A stretch of DNA of 40,181 nt from a virus. The notes beneath the pieces were generated by a model that had not been told where the DNA came from, searched no databases, and worked only from the letters and a program-made list of their open reading frames with translations. Shown piece after piece: positions 7,705 to 35,601 of the stretch; position 1 is the first letter of the stretch; every line of letters begins with the position of its first letter. The stretch lies in IMG/VR virus record IMGVR_UViG_3300020036_002545. The stretch is one strand, 5' to 3'. The translations under genes and the position numbers were made by a program.

Positions 7705-8108
7705 TTGACTACTCAGAAACTCACCCAGATTTCCTACGCCTACAAAACAAGCTAGAGAAAGTATGGGAAGAACGAGACACACAAGCTCAACGTGAAGCCG
7801 TAAAGAATGAGTTAGAAGTAAACGAGGATATTCCAGCTCAAATCTTCTACTGTAAACGATGTAAGCAAGACTATTTCCCTCGCCGTATCGTAAAGGTAGA
7901 ACAGCAAGACTGGAACACTCACGGTACGTTCCGCTTCTGGCGTTCAAAGCATTGTGGTATATGGAATGTTAGACTGATTACCCAGAAGATTAAAGACCCG
8001 TTTTTCATTAAAAGCCCGTCTGTAATTCGAGACAGACGTTTACACAAGCTGGATATGTTGCAACCAACAGAAACTGGCTTTGATATGCTCTACAAAAAGA
8101 ATGTATAA
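7701..8108 (+). CDS. Hypothetical protein with CxxC pair
   Basis: 135 aa; FYCKRCKQ...HCGIWN; ATGA overlap upstream. Confidence 0.5.
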   Translation: MIDYSETHPDFLRLQNKLEKVWEERDTQAQREAVKNELEVNEDIPAQIFYCKRCKQDYFPRRIVKVEQQDWNTHGTFRFWRSKHCGIWNVRLITQKIKDPFFIKSPSVIRDRRLHKLDMLQPTETGFDMLYKKNV

Positions 8109-8481
8109 CGACTACTACCTACTCAAACGAGTGCAAGAAGAACAAGGTGCTGTTTCATTTGCTAGTGTGCAGGATAGCTTTACTTATAAGGGTGAAGTCA
8201 TCGCATGTCCACCAAGTGAATTAAAATATAAATTAATAAGCGAATGTTGTAACGCTGATATAAAACATGCAACAGGAGTTTCCGATATAACTGGTAATTA
8301 CACTTATGAAAGTTTTTGCCTATCTTGTTGTGGTAAAAATCCTAAGGTATTACAAGGTAATTATAATCCTAAGATTGGCGATACAGTCCTATTCCTAAAA
8401 GGCTCTGGTGAAGACGTAACAATAAACGGCGAACAGATGAAAGCAGTGAAATTGGAAGATATAATAATGAAAATCGACTAA
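8101..8481 (+). CDS. GroES/Cpn10-like co-chaperonin with Cys-rich insertion
   Basis: Hand alignment to GroES:
- LLKRV ~ VIVKR
- YKGEVIA ~ TRGEVLA
- KIGDTVLFLKGSGEDVTINGEQMKAVKLEDIIMKI ~ [36 protein letters not shown]
An insert of about 45 aa (CC...H...C..CC) sits at the roof-hairpin position. Confidence 0.55.
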   Translation: MYNDYYLLKRVQEEQGAVSFASVQDSFTYKGEVIACPPSELKYKLISECCNADIKHATGVSDITGNYTYESFCLSCCGKNPKVLQGNYNPKIGDTVLFLKGSGEDVTINGEQMKAVKLEDIIMKID

Positions 8482-17608: not shown

Positions 17609-18136
17609 ATGGATAACAATATAAATGATTTCAAAGTTGTTACGTTGAAAAACATTTCATCTTTTGACTTCACACCAGCCTTTGGCGCGATGTTCAATAG
17701 TCGCCCTATCTTCGGAAAGGCAAAAGCAGGATGTATCGCAGTTGGGGAAGAACTCATATTCCCGTATCACGTTGGGCATAGACTTGCCATTAACTTGGCT
17801 AAAAAGATGCTTATTGAAAAGGACGCTGCTCCAAAATATGGAGAGGGCGACCCTGCAAGAAGCTCAGCACTGTTTGGAGACGAGCAGATAAACACTCTCG
17901 TCGGTCAGATTCTTATAAGTGAGTACCAGGAGGAAAAGCCAATTCAGGAGACTGAAACGGATATGCTCATGCGAAAGTTTGAGGAACTGAATAGACAGGT
18001 AGAAGCTATGAAAGGTGAAAAGATTTCACCTGAAGGCTTCAAAGACAAGCAAGAGGTCATTGCTGAACTTGAGAAACGAGGAATAGTCCACGACAAGCGC
18101 AAGAACAAAAGTGAATTAGAAAAACTTCTCGCCTAA
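17609..18136 (+). CDS. Hypothetical protein with C-terminal HeH/SAP-like motif
   Basis: KQEVIAELEKRGIVHDKRKNKSELEKLL resembles the helix-extension-helix motif common in phage proteins. Confidence 0.5.
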   Translation: MDNNINDFKVVTLKNISSFDFTPAFGAMFNSRPIFGKAKAGCIAVGEELIFPYHVGHRLAINLAKKMLIEKDAAPKYGEGDPARSSALFGDEQINTLVGQILISEYQEEKPIQETETDMLMRKFEELNRQVEAMKGEKISPEGFKDKQEVIAELEKRGIVHDKRKNKSELEKLLA

Positions 18137-18142
18137 AAGCGA

Positions 18143-18187
18143 AGCTATGCTGGCGGCAGTTTATAGGGTTCGATTCCTTACATAGCT
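18143..18187 (+). ncRNA. tRNA-like minihelix (acceptor stem + T-arm only)
   Basis: Perfect 7-bp acceptor agctatg/catagct. T-arm taggg-TTCGATT-cctta. Only a 14-nt connector (ctg-gcgg-cag hairpin) replaces the D and anticodon arms. It ends 1 nt before ATG 18189. Confidence 0.5.
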
Positions 18188-18188
18188 T

Positions 18189-18719
18189 ATGGAAACAGTA
18201 AACAAAGAAAAAATGGAGAGTTTGAGACTGTTAGCGGAAACTACTATTAAGATTTCCGAGGCAAAAAACACACTCCAAGAACTCAAAAGCAAGCAAGAAG
18301 AATACTTGACACTCCGAGAGGATATGGCACAAAAGCATATTCAAAAGATACTCGAAGAAAGCAAGGAACTTCTTGAAAATACGCATAGCAACTACACGAA
18401 AGTAAATGTCTTCTGCCGAGAAGTAATGAGCTACGCAGACGGACTCAGTGAGATGCAAGTAGGTGTGCAAAACCTGTTAGAGACATTTAAAAACAAAGCA
18501 ATTCAATGGGAGAAAAACGCAGAACTGCAAACCATTGAACTATCGCACCAGAAAAAGCTAGTTGAACAGGACAAGGAAAATCTAAAGGAGTGGGAAAAGC
18601 GAATAGAGAAAGATAAAAAAAATATAGAGAAAGAAAAAGCACTGATTGAGAGCCGACAGAAAGCACTAGAGACAAGTTACAAGCTAGAAAAAGACCTATG
18701 GAACAAATTGACCGCATAA
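18189..18719 (+). CDS. Coiled-coil K/E-rich protein
   Basis: 176 aa, heptad-like E/K/L-rich throughout. Confidence 0.55.
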   Translation: METVNKEKMESLRLLAETTIKISEAKNTLQELKSKQEEYLTLREDMAQKHIQKILEESKELLENTHSNYTKVNVFCREVMSYADGLSEMQVGVQNLLETFKNKAIQWEKNAELQTIELSHQKKLVEQDKENLKEWEKRIEKDKKNIEKEKALIESRQKALETSYKLEKDLWNKLTA

Positions 18720-32978: not shown

Positions 32979-33128
32979 ATGAAAAACGACACTATACACC
33001 ACTCACGCACTAAAACGGTAAATAAGCCCTATGTCTGCGTATCTTGTAAAAAGGAGACATCGCAGTTATATTCTGGAAGTTGTCCACAGTGCGAGTTTGC
33101 CAAACGAAAGGAAAAACGTAAACTATAG
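32979..33128 (+). CDS. Zinc-ribbon small protein (49 aa)
   Basis: CVSC-x11-CPQC then a basic tail KRKEKRKL; not in the track (<60 aa). Confidence 0.45.
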   Translation: MKNDTIHHSRTKTVNKPYVCVSCKKETSQLYSGSCPQCEFAKRKEKRKL

Positions 33129-33193
33129 ATGTCAGTATTTCGATAGTCTACTGACAAGCATATACATCATGTAAGCCTTATATGATGTATCGG

Positions 33194-33281
33194 AGAGGCA
33201 TAGAATACGGTGCTGCTCCGCTTCCACGGAGGTCTGCTACTACAGACGGACGAAAGTCCAAGCGCTGTGCTCTGTGCCTCT
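33194..33281 (+). ncRNA. Structured RNA R1: about 21-bp closing helix capped by three short hairpins
   Basis: agaggca/tgcctct, extended by 14 more pairs of which 4 are G-U. The hairpins are ctccg/cggag, gtctg/cagac and ggac-GAAA-gtcc. It is flanked by the 9-bp direct repeat TATCGGAGA. Confidence 0.45.
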
Positions 33282-33286
33282 TATAT

Positions 33287-33358
33287 CGGAGAATAGCTTA
33301 ATGGTGAAGCAATCGTCTTATACACGATAGACTGATGGTTCAAGTCCATCTTCTCCGA
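33287..33358 (+). tRNA. tRNA-Ile (anticodon UAU, reads AUA)
   Basis: Hand-folded cloverleaf:
- acceptor cggagaa/ttctccg
- D arm gctt-aatggtg-aagc
- anticodon arm atcgt-cTTATac-acgat
- T arm gatgg-TTCAAGT-ccatc
No encoded CCA. Confidence 0.8.
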
Positions 33359-33360
33359 CA

Positions 33361-34116
33361 ATGAACAAAATCATACAGGGTGACTGTTTAGAAGTAATGA
33401 AAAAAATAGGAGATAATTCCATAGATTTAACAGTAACCTCTCCACCGTATGATAATTTACGAGACTATAACGGTTATACTTTTGACTTCAAAAATATTGC
33501 AAAAGAACTTTTTAGAGTAACAAAGCAAGGTGGTGTAGTTGTTTGGATTGTTGGTGATGCAACAATTAAAGGAAGTGAAACAGGAACATCATTTAAACAA
33601 GCACTTTACTTTAAGGAGATTGGATTTAATTTGCACGATACAATGATATGGAAAAAGCAGACTTTTACTGATACAGGGTCGCTCCAGTGTAGATACGGTG
33701 GAGTATTTGAATATATGTTTATTTTGTCAAAAGGAAAAATAAAAACATTTAACCCCATAAAAGACAGATTAAATAAAAAACCGAATATTAAAAAAAACGG
33801 AAGTATTAGACAAAAAGATGGTACAACAAGACCTCAATCATCTTTAGGAAAAAAAGCAAACATTTACGGTCAGAGATTTAATGTTTGGGAAATAAACACG
33901 GAAATTTCAAATAGTAATAGATTTCACCCAGCACAATTTTCTGAAAAACTAGCTGAAGACCACATATTATCTTGGAGTAACAAAGGCGACATCGTACTTG
34001 ACCCGATGGCAGGAAGTGGGACAACATTAAAAATGGCAAAGAAAAACGATAGAAATTATATTGGAATAGAAATATCGGCAGAGTACATAAAAATTATTGA
34101 AGAAAGACTAAAATAG
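33361..34116 (+). CDS. N6-adenine/N4-cytosine DNA methyltransferase (beta class)
   Basis: Motif IV TSPPY near the N-terminus and motif I DPMAGSGTT near the C-terminus. Confidence 0.8.
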   Translation: MNKIIQGDCLEVMKKIGDNSIDLTVTSPPYDNLRDYNGYTFDFKNIAKELFRVTKQGGVVVWIVGDATIKGSETGTSFKQALYFKEIGFNLHDTMIWKKQTFTDTGSLQCRYGGVFEYMFILSKGKIKTFNPIKDRLNKKPNIKKNGSIRQKDGTTRPQSSLGKKANIYGQRFNVWEINTEISNSNRFHPAQFSEKLAEDHILSWSNKGDIVLDPMAGSGTTLKMAKKNDRNYIGIEISAEYIKIIEERLK

Positions 34117-34156
34117 TTATCAACATATTGTAGCAATCCTACTTAAAAGTTATAGT
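34117..34156 (+). promoter_or_regulatory. Degenerate DnaA box TTATCAACA abutting the TAG stop, plus promoter TTGTAG-N17-TATAGT
   Basis: Same TAG+box context as at 36600 and 38239. The predicted start near 34163 coincides with the first base of helix R2. Confidence 0.45.
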
Positions 34157-34163
34157 ATATGTA

Positions 34164-34240
34164 CTTCCCTGCGGTATTGTGCTTTCAAGCATAAATACGT
34201 TCACAAAGGAAGCCTAAAGTATAGTTTTCTTGCAGGGAAG
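34164..34240 (+). ncRNA. Structured RNA R2 (9-bp closing helix)
   Basis: cttccctgc (34164-34172) pairs with gcagggaag (34232-34240). Confidence 0.35.
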
Positions 34241-34244
34241 ACTA

Positions 34245-34358
34245 TGGGGAGTGGTAGAGTGGCAATACAAAAATGTGCAAGATGGCCGTGAGTAGTATTT
34301 ATACGAAAGCAATAAGCTACACCTTTTTCCTCGCAAGGTTCGATTCCTTGCCTCCCAA
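34245..34358 (+). ncRNA. tRNA-like element with expanded anticodon domain (114 nt)
   Basis: Acceptor tggggag/cctccca has 6 of 7 pairs. D arm is gta-gagtggcaa-tac. The T arm caagg-TTCGATT-ccttg is canonical. A 65-nt insert, including a GAAA-capped hairpin at 34292-34320, replaces a normal anticodon arm. Confidence 0.4.
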
Positions 34359-34435
34359 CACCGCAGTCTGTATGACTGCCGTACTTACAAGCACGATACG
34401 CTTGTACATGCCCGTTGCTTCGGGTTTTCTAAACA

Positions 34436-34575
34436 CACCACTATCGCTGGGCTTTGCCGTAACAATTCGTTCAACATCTTCTCAACATATCTTTGCCGGA
34501 TCGATGGAGAGACTGAACGATAAATAAGGCAATCGACTCAAAAGAGTACGACTGAGGCTTTCCGTGATAGTGGTG
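34436..34575 (+). ncRNA. Structured RNA R3 (10-bp closing helix around about 120 nt)
   Basis: caccactatc (34436-34445) pairs perfectly with gatagtggtg (34566-34575). Hairpins at 34363-34379 and 34386-34406 lie upstream. Confidence 0.35.
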
Positions 34576-34578
34576 TAT

Positions 34579-34656
34579 CACTCCATAGTTTAATGGTAAA
34601 AACCAAATCCTCATGTAAATGAGTAGCATATGCAGGTTCGATTCCTGCTGGGGTGG
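34579..34656 (+). ncRNA. tRNA-like element with a collapsed anticodon loop (possible pseudo-tRNA or decoy)
   Basis: Acceptor cactcca/tggggtg has 7 pairs including one G-U. D arm is gttt-aatggtaa-aaac. T arm is gcagg-TTCGATT-cctgc. The middle folds as ctcat-GTAA-atgag (4-nt loop). I found no 5-bp stem with a 7-nt loop. Confidence 0.45.
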
Positions 34657-34686
34657 CTGTGCAATTATTATTTAGCTATATAAAAC

Positions 34687-34908
34687 ATGGATTCAGGAAT
34701 ATCTATCGGAGAAGCTCGCGTTCGTACAGCGTTCAATCCAAGCGACGATGCAGCAGTAACAGTTATCAAAAACAAAACTGCCGAGCTTATCAACCTCTGT
34801 GAGACACTTAAAGCAGCAGACCCTCGACTTGCTTCAATAGCTATGACTACATTTGAAGAAGCAGCTATGTGGGCAGTGAAGCTCGCAACAACAAATCCAT
34901 CAGCATAA
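34687..34908 (+). CDS. Small all-helical protein (73 aa)
   Basis: ORF between the tRNA-like element and tRNA-Arg. The motif FNPSDDAAVTVIKNKTAELINLCE...TTFEEAAMWAVKLAT is familiar from small phage proteins, but I cannot name the family. Confidence 0.6.
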   Translation: MDSGISIGEARVRTAFNPSDDAAVTVIKNKTAELINLCETLKAADPRLASIAMTTFEEAAMWAVKLATTNPSA

Positions 34909-34919
34909 GCTGGTGGTAT

Positions 34920-34992
34920 GGGTAAATAGCTCAACAGACAGAGCAACGGACTTCTAAGCCGTAGGTTGTAGGTGCAATTCCTACTTTACCCT
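34920..34992 (+). tRNA. tRNA-Arg (anticodon UCU, reads AGA)
   Basis: Hand-folded cloverleaf:
- acceptor gggtaaa/tttaccc
- D arm gctc-aacagaca-gagc
- anticodon arm acgga-cTTCTaa-gccgt (one A-G mismatch)
- T arm gtagg-TGCAATT-cctac
The elbow is atypical. Confidence 0.7.
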
Positions 34993-34993
34993 C

Positions 34994-35203
34994 ATGTATA
35001 TACCAAAAGACAAACAATGGTTTTGTGATAGAATAGGTAAAACTATTTATCGTGATACACTAAAAAAGTGTTGCGAAACGTGTGACCATGTAGCTACAAA
35101 CGGTTTAATAGTTACAGACAAAGACCACGCTGATTATCTTGCTATGATAGACATGGATTTTGGCGCAGAGGGTATTTATTCAAATTACAGAGATACTTTA
35201 TAG
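34994..35203 (+). CDS. Hypothetical Cys-containing protein
   Basis: 69-aa ORF; the ATG starts 1 nt after the tRNA-Arg end. Confidence 0.5.
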   Translation: MYIPKDKQWFCDRIGKTIYRDTLKKCCETCDHVATNGLIVTDKDHADYLAMIDMDFGAEGIYSNYRDTL

Positions 35204-35255
35204 GAAAGTTACTACGGTTTATTAGAAAATGAGATAAACTAAGTAAGATGGCAGT

Positions 35256-35333
35256 ACAAAAGGGAAGGGTAGTTATTCTTAACAATCCTGCGGCATAGAG
35301 AATACATTGTCGTTAGACCCCCTTTCCTTTTGT
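35256..35333 (+). ncRNA. Structured RNA R4 (14-bp closing helix plus inner 6-bp hairpin)
   Basis: acaaaagggaaggg pairs with ccctttccttttgt (one G-U). The inner hairpin is tattct/agaata. Terminator 35350-35375 follows. Confidence 0.4.
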
Positions 35334-35349
35334 GTTGCTTTCAAAGTAA

Positions 35350-35375
35350 AAGACCGCTAAAAACGGTCTTTTTTA
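35350..35375 (+). terminator. Rho-independent terminator
   Basis: aagaccg-ctaaaaa-cggtctt followed by TTTTT. Confidence 0.75.
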
Positions 35376-35507
35376 ATACACACAAAAAACGCCACAAGTG
35401 CAAAGAAGATAATTGTCTCCATATAGAATGTTTCCTGTAGTGTACTAGGTTATTGCCGAAGCCGTCAAAAACTATTGACACAAATATACTTTTCATGTCA
35501 CTATAGA

Positions 35508-35598
35508 CAAGTACCTCCAGTTTTAGCTACAGTTAGGTACTCACATTGTATACAAAGAGCCAGCGACCGACTTTTGATAACGGGCTGGCTTTTCTTTT
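35508..35598 (+). ncRNA. Candidate small RNA (two hairpins, own terminator)
   Basis: TTGACA at 35475-35480 lies upstream, but the -10 is unclear. The hairpin is agtacct/aggtact (35510-35541). The terminator is agccagc/gctggct plus TTTTCTTTT (35558-35598). Confidence 0.3.
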
Positions 35599-35601
35599 AC
35601 G

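Follow-up and report, generated by a model that had tools for sequence, protein, structure and literature searches.

Two short stretches of the phage genome IMGVR_UViG_3300020036_002545 raise the question of what a phage might do with RNAs that have the acceptor, D and T arms of a transfer RNA (tRNA) and lack an anticodon loop with which to decode. The stretches, here termed element 1 (34245-34358) and element 2 (34579-34656), bracket a structured RNA of ~220 nt, and their T arm recurs in a minihelix at 18143. The window, i.e. the whole stretch of 40,181 nt that was analysed, is a phage genome of ~40 kb in which essentially every sizeable open reading frame (ORF) is read from the + strand. Among its genes are those for a GroEL-type chaperonin, for tail and lysis functions and for two ordinary tRNAs, and it has a small early region. 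The answer that we tentatively favour is that elements 1 and 2 and the minihelix are tRNA-derived processing handles for ribonuclease (RNase) P and RNase Z.

Anatomy of the tRNA-shaped elements

Whether the resemblance to tRNA exceeds chance can be judged from counts. A purpose-written scan (the acceptor-plus-T-arm scan), which required a T loop on a 5-bp stem and tolerated no more than one unpaired position among the seven of the acceptor, returned exactly four matches in the window, i.e. tRNA-Ile, element 1, element 2 and the 18143 minihelix, as against 0.07 expected per shuffle from shuffled windows. The T-arm string GGTTCGATTCCT, which a sequence-only reading of this DNA had reported as common to both elements and the minihelix, is indeed present at 34337, 34635 and 18167, i.e. 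in three copies versus 0.13 expected. ARAGORN, with or without its intron mode, made no calls in 100 shuffled 40-kb windows, and gave no intron-type calls in ~400 kb of other phage loci. The tRNA-like feature is real and statistically solid, far beyond chance. Its parts are as follows.

34245-34358, + strand: tRNA-like element 1, identified from sequence, ARAGORN intron mode (score 102.7) and the acceptor-plus-T-arm scan
34245-34251 / 34351-34357: element 1 acceptor stem, 6/7 pairs
34254-34268: element 1 D arm, GUA(G)/(A)UAC, with GG in its loop
34269-34273 / 34324-34328: element 1 A5/U5 'anticodon stem' of 5 bp
34274-34323: element 1 insert of 50 nt, standing in for the anticodon loop
34329-34333: element 1 variable loop, CCUCG
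34334-34350: element 1 T arm, CAAGG-UUCGAUU-CCUUG, with discriminator A34358 and no CCA
34579-34656, + strand: tRNA-like element 2, identified from the Rfam tRNA model, fold and forced ARAGORN calls
34579-34585 / 34649-34655: element 2 acceptor stem, CACUCCA/UGGGGUG, 7 pairs including one G-U
34588-34603: element 2 D arm, stem GUUU/AAAC and loop AAUGGUAA, preceded by U8
34610-34623: element 2 hairpin, CUCAU-GUAA-AUGAG, a 5-bp stem with a GUAA tetraloop in the minimum-free-energy fold, set between a 6-nt linker (CAAAUC) before it and an 8-nt linker (UAGCAUAU) after it
34632-34648: element 2 T arm, GCAGG-UUCGAUU-CCUGC, followed by discriminator G34656 and no CCA
18143-18188, + strand: tRNA-like minihelix of 46 nt, identified from sequence, fold, Rfam and the acceptor-plus-T-arm scan (7/7 pairs), and made up of acceptor AGCUAUG/CAUAGCU, a 3-bp mini hairpin, T arm UAGGG-UUCGAUU-CCUUA and discriminator U18188

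The full consensus T loop GGUUCGAUUCC is present in element 1, element 2 and the minihelix, with 6, 7 and 7 acceptor pairs, respectively, and elements 1 and 2 retain U8, A14, the D-loop GG and the UUCGAUU T loop of canonical tRNA (RF00005). The presence of acceptor, D and T arms in both elements, as first claimed, is agreed on by the sequence, by ARAGORN and by the scan; the sequence likewise confirms the 6/7 acceptor pairs, 3-bp D stem and perfect T arm of element 1, and for element 2 the 7-bp acceptor and the perfect T arm hold, as does, in the fold, the 4-nt loop of ctcat-GTAA-atgag. A CCA end is encoded in 0 of the 5 tRNAs and tRNA-like elements of the window.

By contrast with canonical tRNA, neither element has a 7-nt anticodon loop, and because this test fails the two cannot be counted as canonical tRNAs. 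The Rfam alignment, the fold and ARAGORN concur with the earlier view that neither loop is usable. Element 2 is matched by the Rfam tRNA model at 42.5 bits (cut-off 29), only when its anticodon arm is skipped as a 24-nt local gap, and its GUAA hairpin folded alone has z = -3.2. The statement that element 2 offers no 5-bp stem with a 7-nt loop survives ARAGORN in both modes, which yielded forced calls only: Thr(tgt) with 3/5 stem pairs in plain mode and, in intron mode, a best call of Tyr(gta), which needs an 'intron' of 2 nt and has two mismatches, at scores of 102-103.5 versus 107 and 120 for the two real tRNAs. Element 1 has no Rfam tRNA match, not even at E <= 10 in a 201-nt search; ARAGORN intron mode reads it as Cys(aca), with a 43-nt 'intron' at 31/32, the loop CUACACC and C at position 37. 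The sequence-only reading had placed a branched insert of ~65 nt where the anticodon arm of element 1 should be; the insert stands, at a size of 50 nt and replacing the loop only, the A5/U5 stem being kept. It contains a GAAA sequence.

Other identities for these sequences were considered and rejected. A tmRNA (transfer-messenger RNA)-like domain does not fit, in that G3-U70 is absent (position 3-70 is G-C in element 1 and C-G in both element 2 and the minihelix) and ARAGORN reports no tmRNA; the tmRNA model matches the T loop alone of the minihelix, at 3.6 bits. A coding role for the 84-codon ORF 34273-34527 was rejected, since this ORF crosses the T arm and has stop codons in the second allele of the locus (allele B, below). 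It was also observed that 34242-34253 (CUAUGGGGAGUG, i.e. the 5' acceptor strand of element 1 and its flank) is complementary to 34579-34588 (CACUCCAUAG, in element 2); in the minimum-free-energy fold of the whole region this pairing replaces both cloverleaves, and it could be an alternative conformer or chance.

Borders between units and putative tRNA-type processing

The stacked acceptor and T arms and the D/T elbow are the parts of a tRNA on which recognition by RNase P, RNase Z and the CCA-adding enzyme depends; the anticodon domain is not needed for processing. The acceptor/T-arm stack is kept in all three elements and the D/T elbow in two of them. The anticodon domain has drifted freely: the minihelix has lost it, in element 2 a tetraloop caps it, and in element 1 it has grown by 50 nt. 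Every tRNA or tRNA-like element, moreover, lies at a border between units. The closing stems of the neighbouring RNA structures end 2-3 nt before the elements (hairpin 1 is 3 nt 5' of element 1, and the central domain 2 nt 5' of element 2), and an ATG lies 2, 1 and 0 nt past the discriminators of tRNA-Ile, tRNA-Arg and the minihelix. The first two of these start codons belong to a DNA methyltransferase (MTase) gene (ATG 33361), the profile match of which begins at residue 1, and to orf69 (ATG 34994), in which the next in-frame methionine is far downstream; neither start has a plausible alternative. The minihelix occupies the gap between an upstream stop at 18136 and ATG 18189, within the structural-gene module. 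Ribosomes that do not arrive by translation from upstream would have difficulty in starting at an ATG 0-2 nt past so stable a helix as an acceptor stem, unless the tRNA were cut off. The missing CCA fits the RNase Z route. It is because the parts recognised by the enzymes are kept, because the elements lie at borders and because ORFs abut tRNA 3' ends that the handle reading is favoured.

The order along the locus is tRNA-Ile, hairpin 1, element 1, three hairpins and a 145-nt domain, element 2, the acb2-like gene, tRNA-Arg and orf69. The neighbouring features are:

33287-33358, + strand: tRNA-Ile(UAU), canonical, Rfam 70.6 bits
34116-34157, + strand: putative promoter region, the motif GTTATCAACA and then TTGTAG-17-TATAGT, with the hexamers read from the sequence
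34164-34241, + strand: hairpin 1, a Y-shaped leader structure closed by CUUCCCUGC/GCAGGGAAG, z = -4.3
34360-34425, + strand: three short hairpins (34360-34382, 34386-34406 and 34410-34425), z = -3.4
34435-34576, + strand: central multi-branch domain with a 13-bp closing stem (34435-34447 / 34564-34576), z = -5.7
34471-34515 and 34533-34554: swappable hairpins V1 and V2, around a conserved 17-nt core (34516-34532)
34687-34908, + strand: gene of the Acb2/Tad1-hairpin family, 73 aa, Pfam PF24729 at E = 1.7e-11 and 44.6 bits (cut-off 27), with a precomputed Pfam match in agreement
34920-34992, + strand: tRNA-Arg(UCU), canonical, Rfam 64.5 bits and ARAGORN

The 570-nt gap from the MTase gene to the next ORF is densely structured (z = -4.85), and a terminator scan found no intrinsic-terminator-like sites in 34117-35200. 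The acb2-like gene begins 30 nt after element 2, and tRNA-Arg follows 11 nt past its stop codon. The promoter candidate at 34116-34157 has a weak -35 hexamer and was not among the output of the consensus scan. The GTTATCCACA-type motif has 9 matches in the window versus 2.5 expected, 7 of them on the + strand and mostly between ORFs or at ORF ends. This motif is the DnaA-box consensus; its + strand sites (4648, 32572, 33079, 34116, 35601, 36602 and 38241) are in several cases followed by promoter-like -35/-10 hexamers, it also occurs in two other phage loci (L028 and L037), and it is probably an early-promoter or regulator site common to the phage family. The ORF starts of the window have essentially no Shine-Dalgarno motifs and have A-rich leaders, which fits initiation by the host independently of Shine-Dalgarno pairing.

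From the anatomy of the elements, their positions, the missing CCA and the array context, all read directly from the DNA, we infer cleavage, CCA addition and a single transcript, as follows. The tRNA-Ile, elements 1 and 2 and tRNA-Arg would share one early transcript, in which the 5' end of each element would be the cleavage site of RNase P, and the 3' side of each discriminator that of RNase Z. The cuts would free the leader hairpin of ~80 nt, element 1, the structured RNA of ~220 nt with helix-protected ends, and element 2; they would also yield a monocistronic acb2 messenger RNA (mRNA) with an unstructured, A/U-rich leader of 30 nt, together with tRNA-Arg, and near-leaderless mRNAs of orf69, of the MTase gene and possibly of ORF 18189. 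Once freed, the elements may be stable enough to remain as by-products, and CCA may be added to them.

Several known systems are similar in part. In plant mitochondria, t-elements are non-canonical cloverleaves that keep GGTTCRANYCC and have ends that coincide with those of mRNAs, one being at +2 of rps4; they are thought to direct cuts by RNase P and RNase Z, some mRNA 5' ends lying a few nt from the start codon (PMC1920247). The phage elements resemble them in the non-canonical cloverleaf with a GGTTCRANYCC T arm and in the position at predicted mRNA borders; they differ in their phage setting within a short tRNA array, and in that two of them flank a structured non-coding RNA. The features that define t-elements and mascRNA-type handles, i.e. 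the acceptor/T-arm stack, a consensus T loop and an aberrant anticodon domain, are found in the elements and the minihelix, and by analogy the t-elements, or tRNA punctuation, of plant mitochondria together with mascRNA-type handles appear to be the functionally closest known systems.

RNase P and RNase Z free mascRNA from the long transcript in which it is made; it receives CCA and does not decode. The minihelix (18143-18187) aligns over the full length of the mascRNA/MEN-beta family (RF01684, mascRNA-menRNA), i.e. to its acceptor, mini D hairpin and T arm, at 31.9 bits, short of the 42.5-bit cut-off; for elements 1 and 2 the match is limited to the T arm. mascRNA is vertebrate and nuclear, and any likeness to the minihelix would therefore be convergent.

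Among phage RNAs, GOLLD and ROOL are structured and lie near tRNA islands, and the linker of GOLLD sometimes carries tRNAs (PMC12286853). The RNA studied here is similarly phage-encoded, highly structured and beside tRNA genes; by contrast it is smaller, its tRNA-shaped parts are non-decoding, and it has no covariance-model match. Neither GOLLD, ROOL, YrlA nor any other Rfam RNA was found at E <= 10 in 33000-35600, save tRNA and a reverse-strand echo. The tRNA-like/pre-miRNA (precursor microRNA) units of murine gammaherpesvirus 68 (MHV68) and the stable RNAs C and D in the tRNA cluster of phage T4 are small tRNA-like or tRNA-linked RNAs, co-transcribed with other RNAs, freed by tRNA-processing enzymes and non-decoding. 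They belong to different hosts and polymerases and have no sequence relationship to the phage elements.

Of the roles first suggested for the elements, that of RNase P/Z handle is the best fit, with regard to the borders, the missing CCA, the ATG spacing and the mascRNA alignment. Several points weigh against it. The copies found are nearly identical, with no covariation among them, and no homologue was found elsewhere in the databases searched. Genes are tightly packed throughout the phage, such that an ATG beside a tRNA could be mere compaction, and for ORF 18189 a second ATG, at 18213 and preceded by an A-rich leader, could serve as start. The model also presumes that the host uses RNase Z. 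A bare handle, in addition, leaves unexplained both the 50-nt insert of element 1 and the swappable cassette in the flanked RNA.

Strain variation and search for relatives

The locus was found in one phage lineage only; JGI samples 3300020046, 3300020037, 3300020047 and 3300005664 contain the phage. Two long JGI loci, both from sample 3300020046 (L017 and L020), are identical to the window, and two short contigs from other samples (L018 and L019) match it over ~2.2-2.4 kb except at 34471-34554. In L018, over 2.4 kb, 21 of the 22 mismatches and all 8 gaps fall within a 901-nt stretch at the locus, where they align inside this cassette. The second allele (allele B; L018, L019 and L042) replaces 34471-34554 only, with V1 and V2 fully exchanged and the core kept; alleles A and B have the same fold architecture (z = -5.7 and -6.5). 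The three short hairpins at 34360-34425 are 100% conserved in L018, L019 and L042. The replacement of V1 and V2 implies either a diverged homologous donor RNA or a specificity cassette. Antisense targets of the cassette were sought in the phage and in related loci, with matches of 10-13 nt at chance level only, and this possibility was rejected.

L042, which carries allele B, is informative in that it lacks the MTase gene and the 47 nt behind it (window 33360-34163, an 804-nt indel; 693-695 in L042). The indel lies exactly between the 3' end of tRNA-Ile and hairpin 1, and the promoter candidate sits at the 3' end of this MTase segment. Since hairpin 1 thus starts 2 nt after tRNA-Ile in L042, the locus is part of the tRNA array, and it is most simply co-transcribed with tRNA-Ile. 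Outside the cassette, the structured RNA of L042 (~408 nt) has one substitution, in an apical loop of hairpin 1; in the 30-nt spacer that follows element 2, two positions are substituted and 3 nt are deleted. These counts are too small for a test of selection.

At the 5' end of tRNA-Ile, a 95-nt element (window 33189-33292) was observed, with terminal inverted repeats of ~21 bp, a four-way-junction fold (z = -7.3 for the region) and a flanking 9-bp direct repeat, TATCGGAGA. It is absent in L042 and looks like a miniature inverted-repeat mobile element inside the phage.

Searches beyond this lineage were negative. The RNA locus has no blastn match in 50,697 phage records, and exact or degenerate DNA patterns of the locus found nothing in IMG/VR, metagenome contigs and GTDB genomes; the single match from a further scan of genomes, a T-arm fragment in a Clostridiales metagenome-assembled genome, is unrelated and was set aside. 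The elements were not found in 16 IMG/VR loci carrying acb2 homologues, nor in three contexts examined among further acb2 homologues, which are <=78% identical to the window protein. Homologues of the 752-aa virion protein are present on many contigs of ~40 kb, none with the locus. The nearest named phages, TM7 phage DolZOral124_53_65 and MW202566, gave no tRNA calls, and in more distant relatives at most one tRNA is present.

Some observations on these relatives are of separate interest. TM7 phage DolZOral124_53_65 (L025, MG269973) has, at 7955-8020 on the minus strand, an unannotated 66-nt element whose match to the Rfam tmRNA model (34.9 bits, cut-off 47) is confined to the tRNA-like domain; it has a G3-U70 pair and an encoded ACCA end. 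A domain of ~175 nt with a 10-bp closing stem lies upstream of it (8024-8207), and together they form a unit with promoter-like and terminator-like sequences of its own; as judged from its sequence, the 66-nt element may be a 'head-only' tmRNA mimic. In L028, 15818-15860 comprises a short acceptor-like stem and a perfect GCGAG-UUCGAUU-CUCGC T arm, 8 nt past an ORF stop, which could be a minihelix handle or a weak terminator, one such match being at chance level for 394 kb. A GroEL/Cpn60 chaperonin is encoded in the ~39-kb phage family that includes the TM7 phage (window 8699-10252; L025, L026 and L037), and in L037 the chaperonin gene is directly behind an acb2-like gene.

Alternative explanations and implications

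An alternative that we consider unlikely is that the locus is an RNA anti-defence gene, the tRNA-shaped modules, alone or within an RNA of ~500 nt, acting as decoy or sponge for a host factor that recognises tRNA by its acceptor stem, T arm or elbow, e.g. a toxin that modifies or cleaves the acceptor end, an immune sensor of the nucleotidyltransferase type or a tRNA-modifying enzyme. The adjoining genes for a DNA methyltransferase and an Acb2/Tad1-like cyclic-nucleotide sponge are of the kind typically found in early counter-defence regions, the T loop of the elements (GGUUCGAUUCC) is nearer consensus than those of the phage's own working tRNAs (GGUUCAAGUCC and GGUGCAAUUCC), and a cassette swap in an otherwise identical background resembles arms-race variation. 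Phage tRNAs as such are known counter-defence tools (bioRxiv 10.1101/2023.03.15.532788). However, the loci and contig contexts with acb2 homologues, 16 and three in number, are without such RNAs, and the 18143 minihelix lies in the structural module, outside the counter-defence region. We know of no defence system that is blocked by an anticodon-less tRNA mimic. Anticodon nucleases, first proposed as the target of such decoys, are disfavoured on logic, in that the loop they need to recognise is the very part that the elements lack.

It is similarly improbable, in our judgement, that the elements are decaying tRNA genes, i.e. functionless pseudogenes in a tRNA array that has also been invaded by small palindromic elements. 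Consistent with invasion are the 95-nt inverted-repeat insertion at tRNA-Ile, with its direct repeat TATCGGAGA and its absence from L042, and the 13-bp terminal inverted repeats that the 145-nt domain also has. Decay would further agree with the restriction of the locus to one lineage, the more distant relatives having zero or one tRNA, and with the Tyr(gta) call, the best of the forced ARAGORN calls on element 2. The UGUAAA of element 2 resembles the anticodon loop CUGUAAA of tRNA-Tyr(GUA), such that element 2 could be a former tRNA-Tyr. By contrast, all departures from tRNA lie in the anticodon domain and none in the ~48 nt of acceptor, D and T arms of either element; the minihelix, as a third element, has the same selective retention. 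Neither element is one mutation from a working tRNA, given the A5/U5 stem and C37 of element 1 and the 6-nt and 8-nt linkers of element 2, and the single loop substitution in the ~408-nt RNA of L042, set against two substitutions and a 3-nt deletion in the spacer, points the same way, on small counts. The suggestion that these are not simple pseudogenes is plausible, the available copies being too nearly identical for selection to be measured.

Less probable again is that the elements are modules of a single ornate RNA of ~495 nt (34164-34656), folded or multimeric in the manner of GOLLD and ROOL, in which the tRNA shapes serve as structural or docking modules and V1/V2 as exchangeable peripheral arms. 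The z of -4.85 for the whole intergenic region, the GUAA tetraloop in element 2 and the GAAA in the insert of element 1 accord with this, as do the occurrence of GOLLD and ROOL near tRNA islands (PMC12286853) and the closed domain of ~175 nt directly before the tRNA-like element in the distantly related TM7 phage. However, no Rfam family but tRNA matches the locus at E <= 10, much of the stability comes from local hairpins, and the separate minihelix at 18143 is left unexplained.

A more elaborate proposal, which we regard as highly speculative, is that the ~495-nt RNA represents a new class of phage counter-defence RNA: a stable, tRNA-capped scaffold in which V1/V2 (alleles A and B) would set specificity, an immune protein of the host that senses structured or tRNA-like RNA (e.g. 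a sensor with a nucleotidyltransferase fold) would be engaged by the tRNA-shaped modules, and co-expression with the Acb2/Tad1-like sponge would make up a two-part anti-signalling operon.

That the elements are intron-containing tRNAs, spliced to a working tRNA-Cys and tRNA-Tyr as the intron-mode calls of Cys(aca) with 43 nt and Tyr(gta) with 2 nt might indicate, is hardly credible, in that product loop, cut site, insert size and stem all misfit: the sole excision leaving U33 gives CUACACC, in which position 34 is A and position 37 a pyrimidine, the 31/32 insertion site is non-canonical and corresponds to no known splicing type (group I, or bulge-helix-bulge at 37/38), a stem of A-U pairs only is atypical, group I introns, of which Rfam has no match at the locus, are far longer than 43-50 nt, and the 2-nt 'intron' is a software artefact. 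Bacteria are not known to have the endonuclease that splices tRNA, and a scan of 30 proteins, which left aside ~25 further ORFs (mostly of the structural module), gave neither an RNA ligase nor an endonuclease.

Literature searches found no description of tRNA-like punctuation, or of anticodon-less tRNA mimics, in phages. If the reading of the elements as RNase P/Z processing handles is correct, the phage would use tRNA punctuation in the style of mitochondria, with tRNA shapes that are past decoding, and its early transcript would be carved into a structured RNA, an mRNA of the anti-CBASS type (CBASS, cyclic-oligonucleotide-based antiphage signalling system) and near-leaderless mRNAs. The elements would then be a natural counterpart of the tRNA scaffolds employed for RNA expression, and processing of this type would provide a rationale for many 'pseudo' or odd tRNA calls in phage genomes. 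The flanked RNA, with its fully replaced cassette beside a counter-defence gene, is a candidate functional phage RNA.

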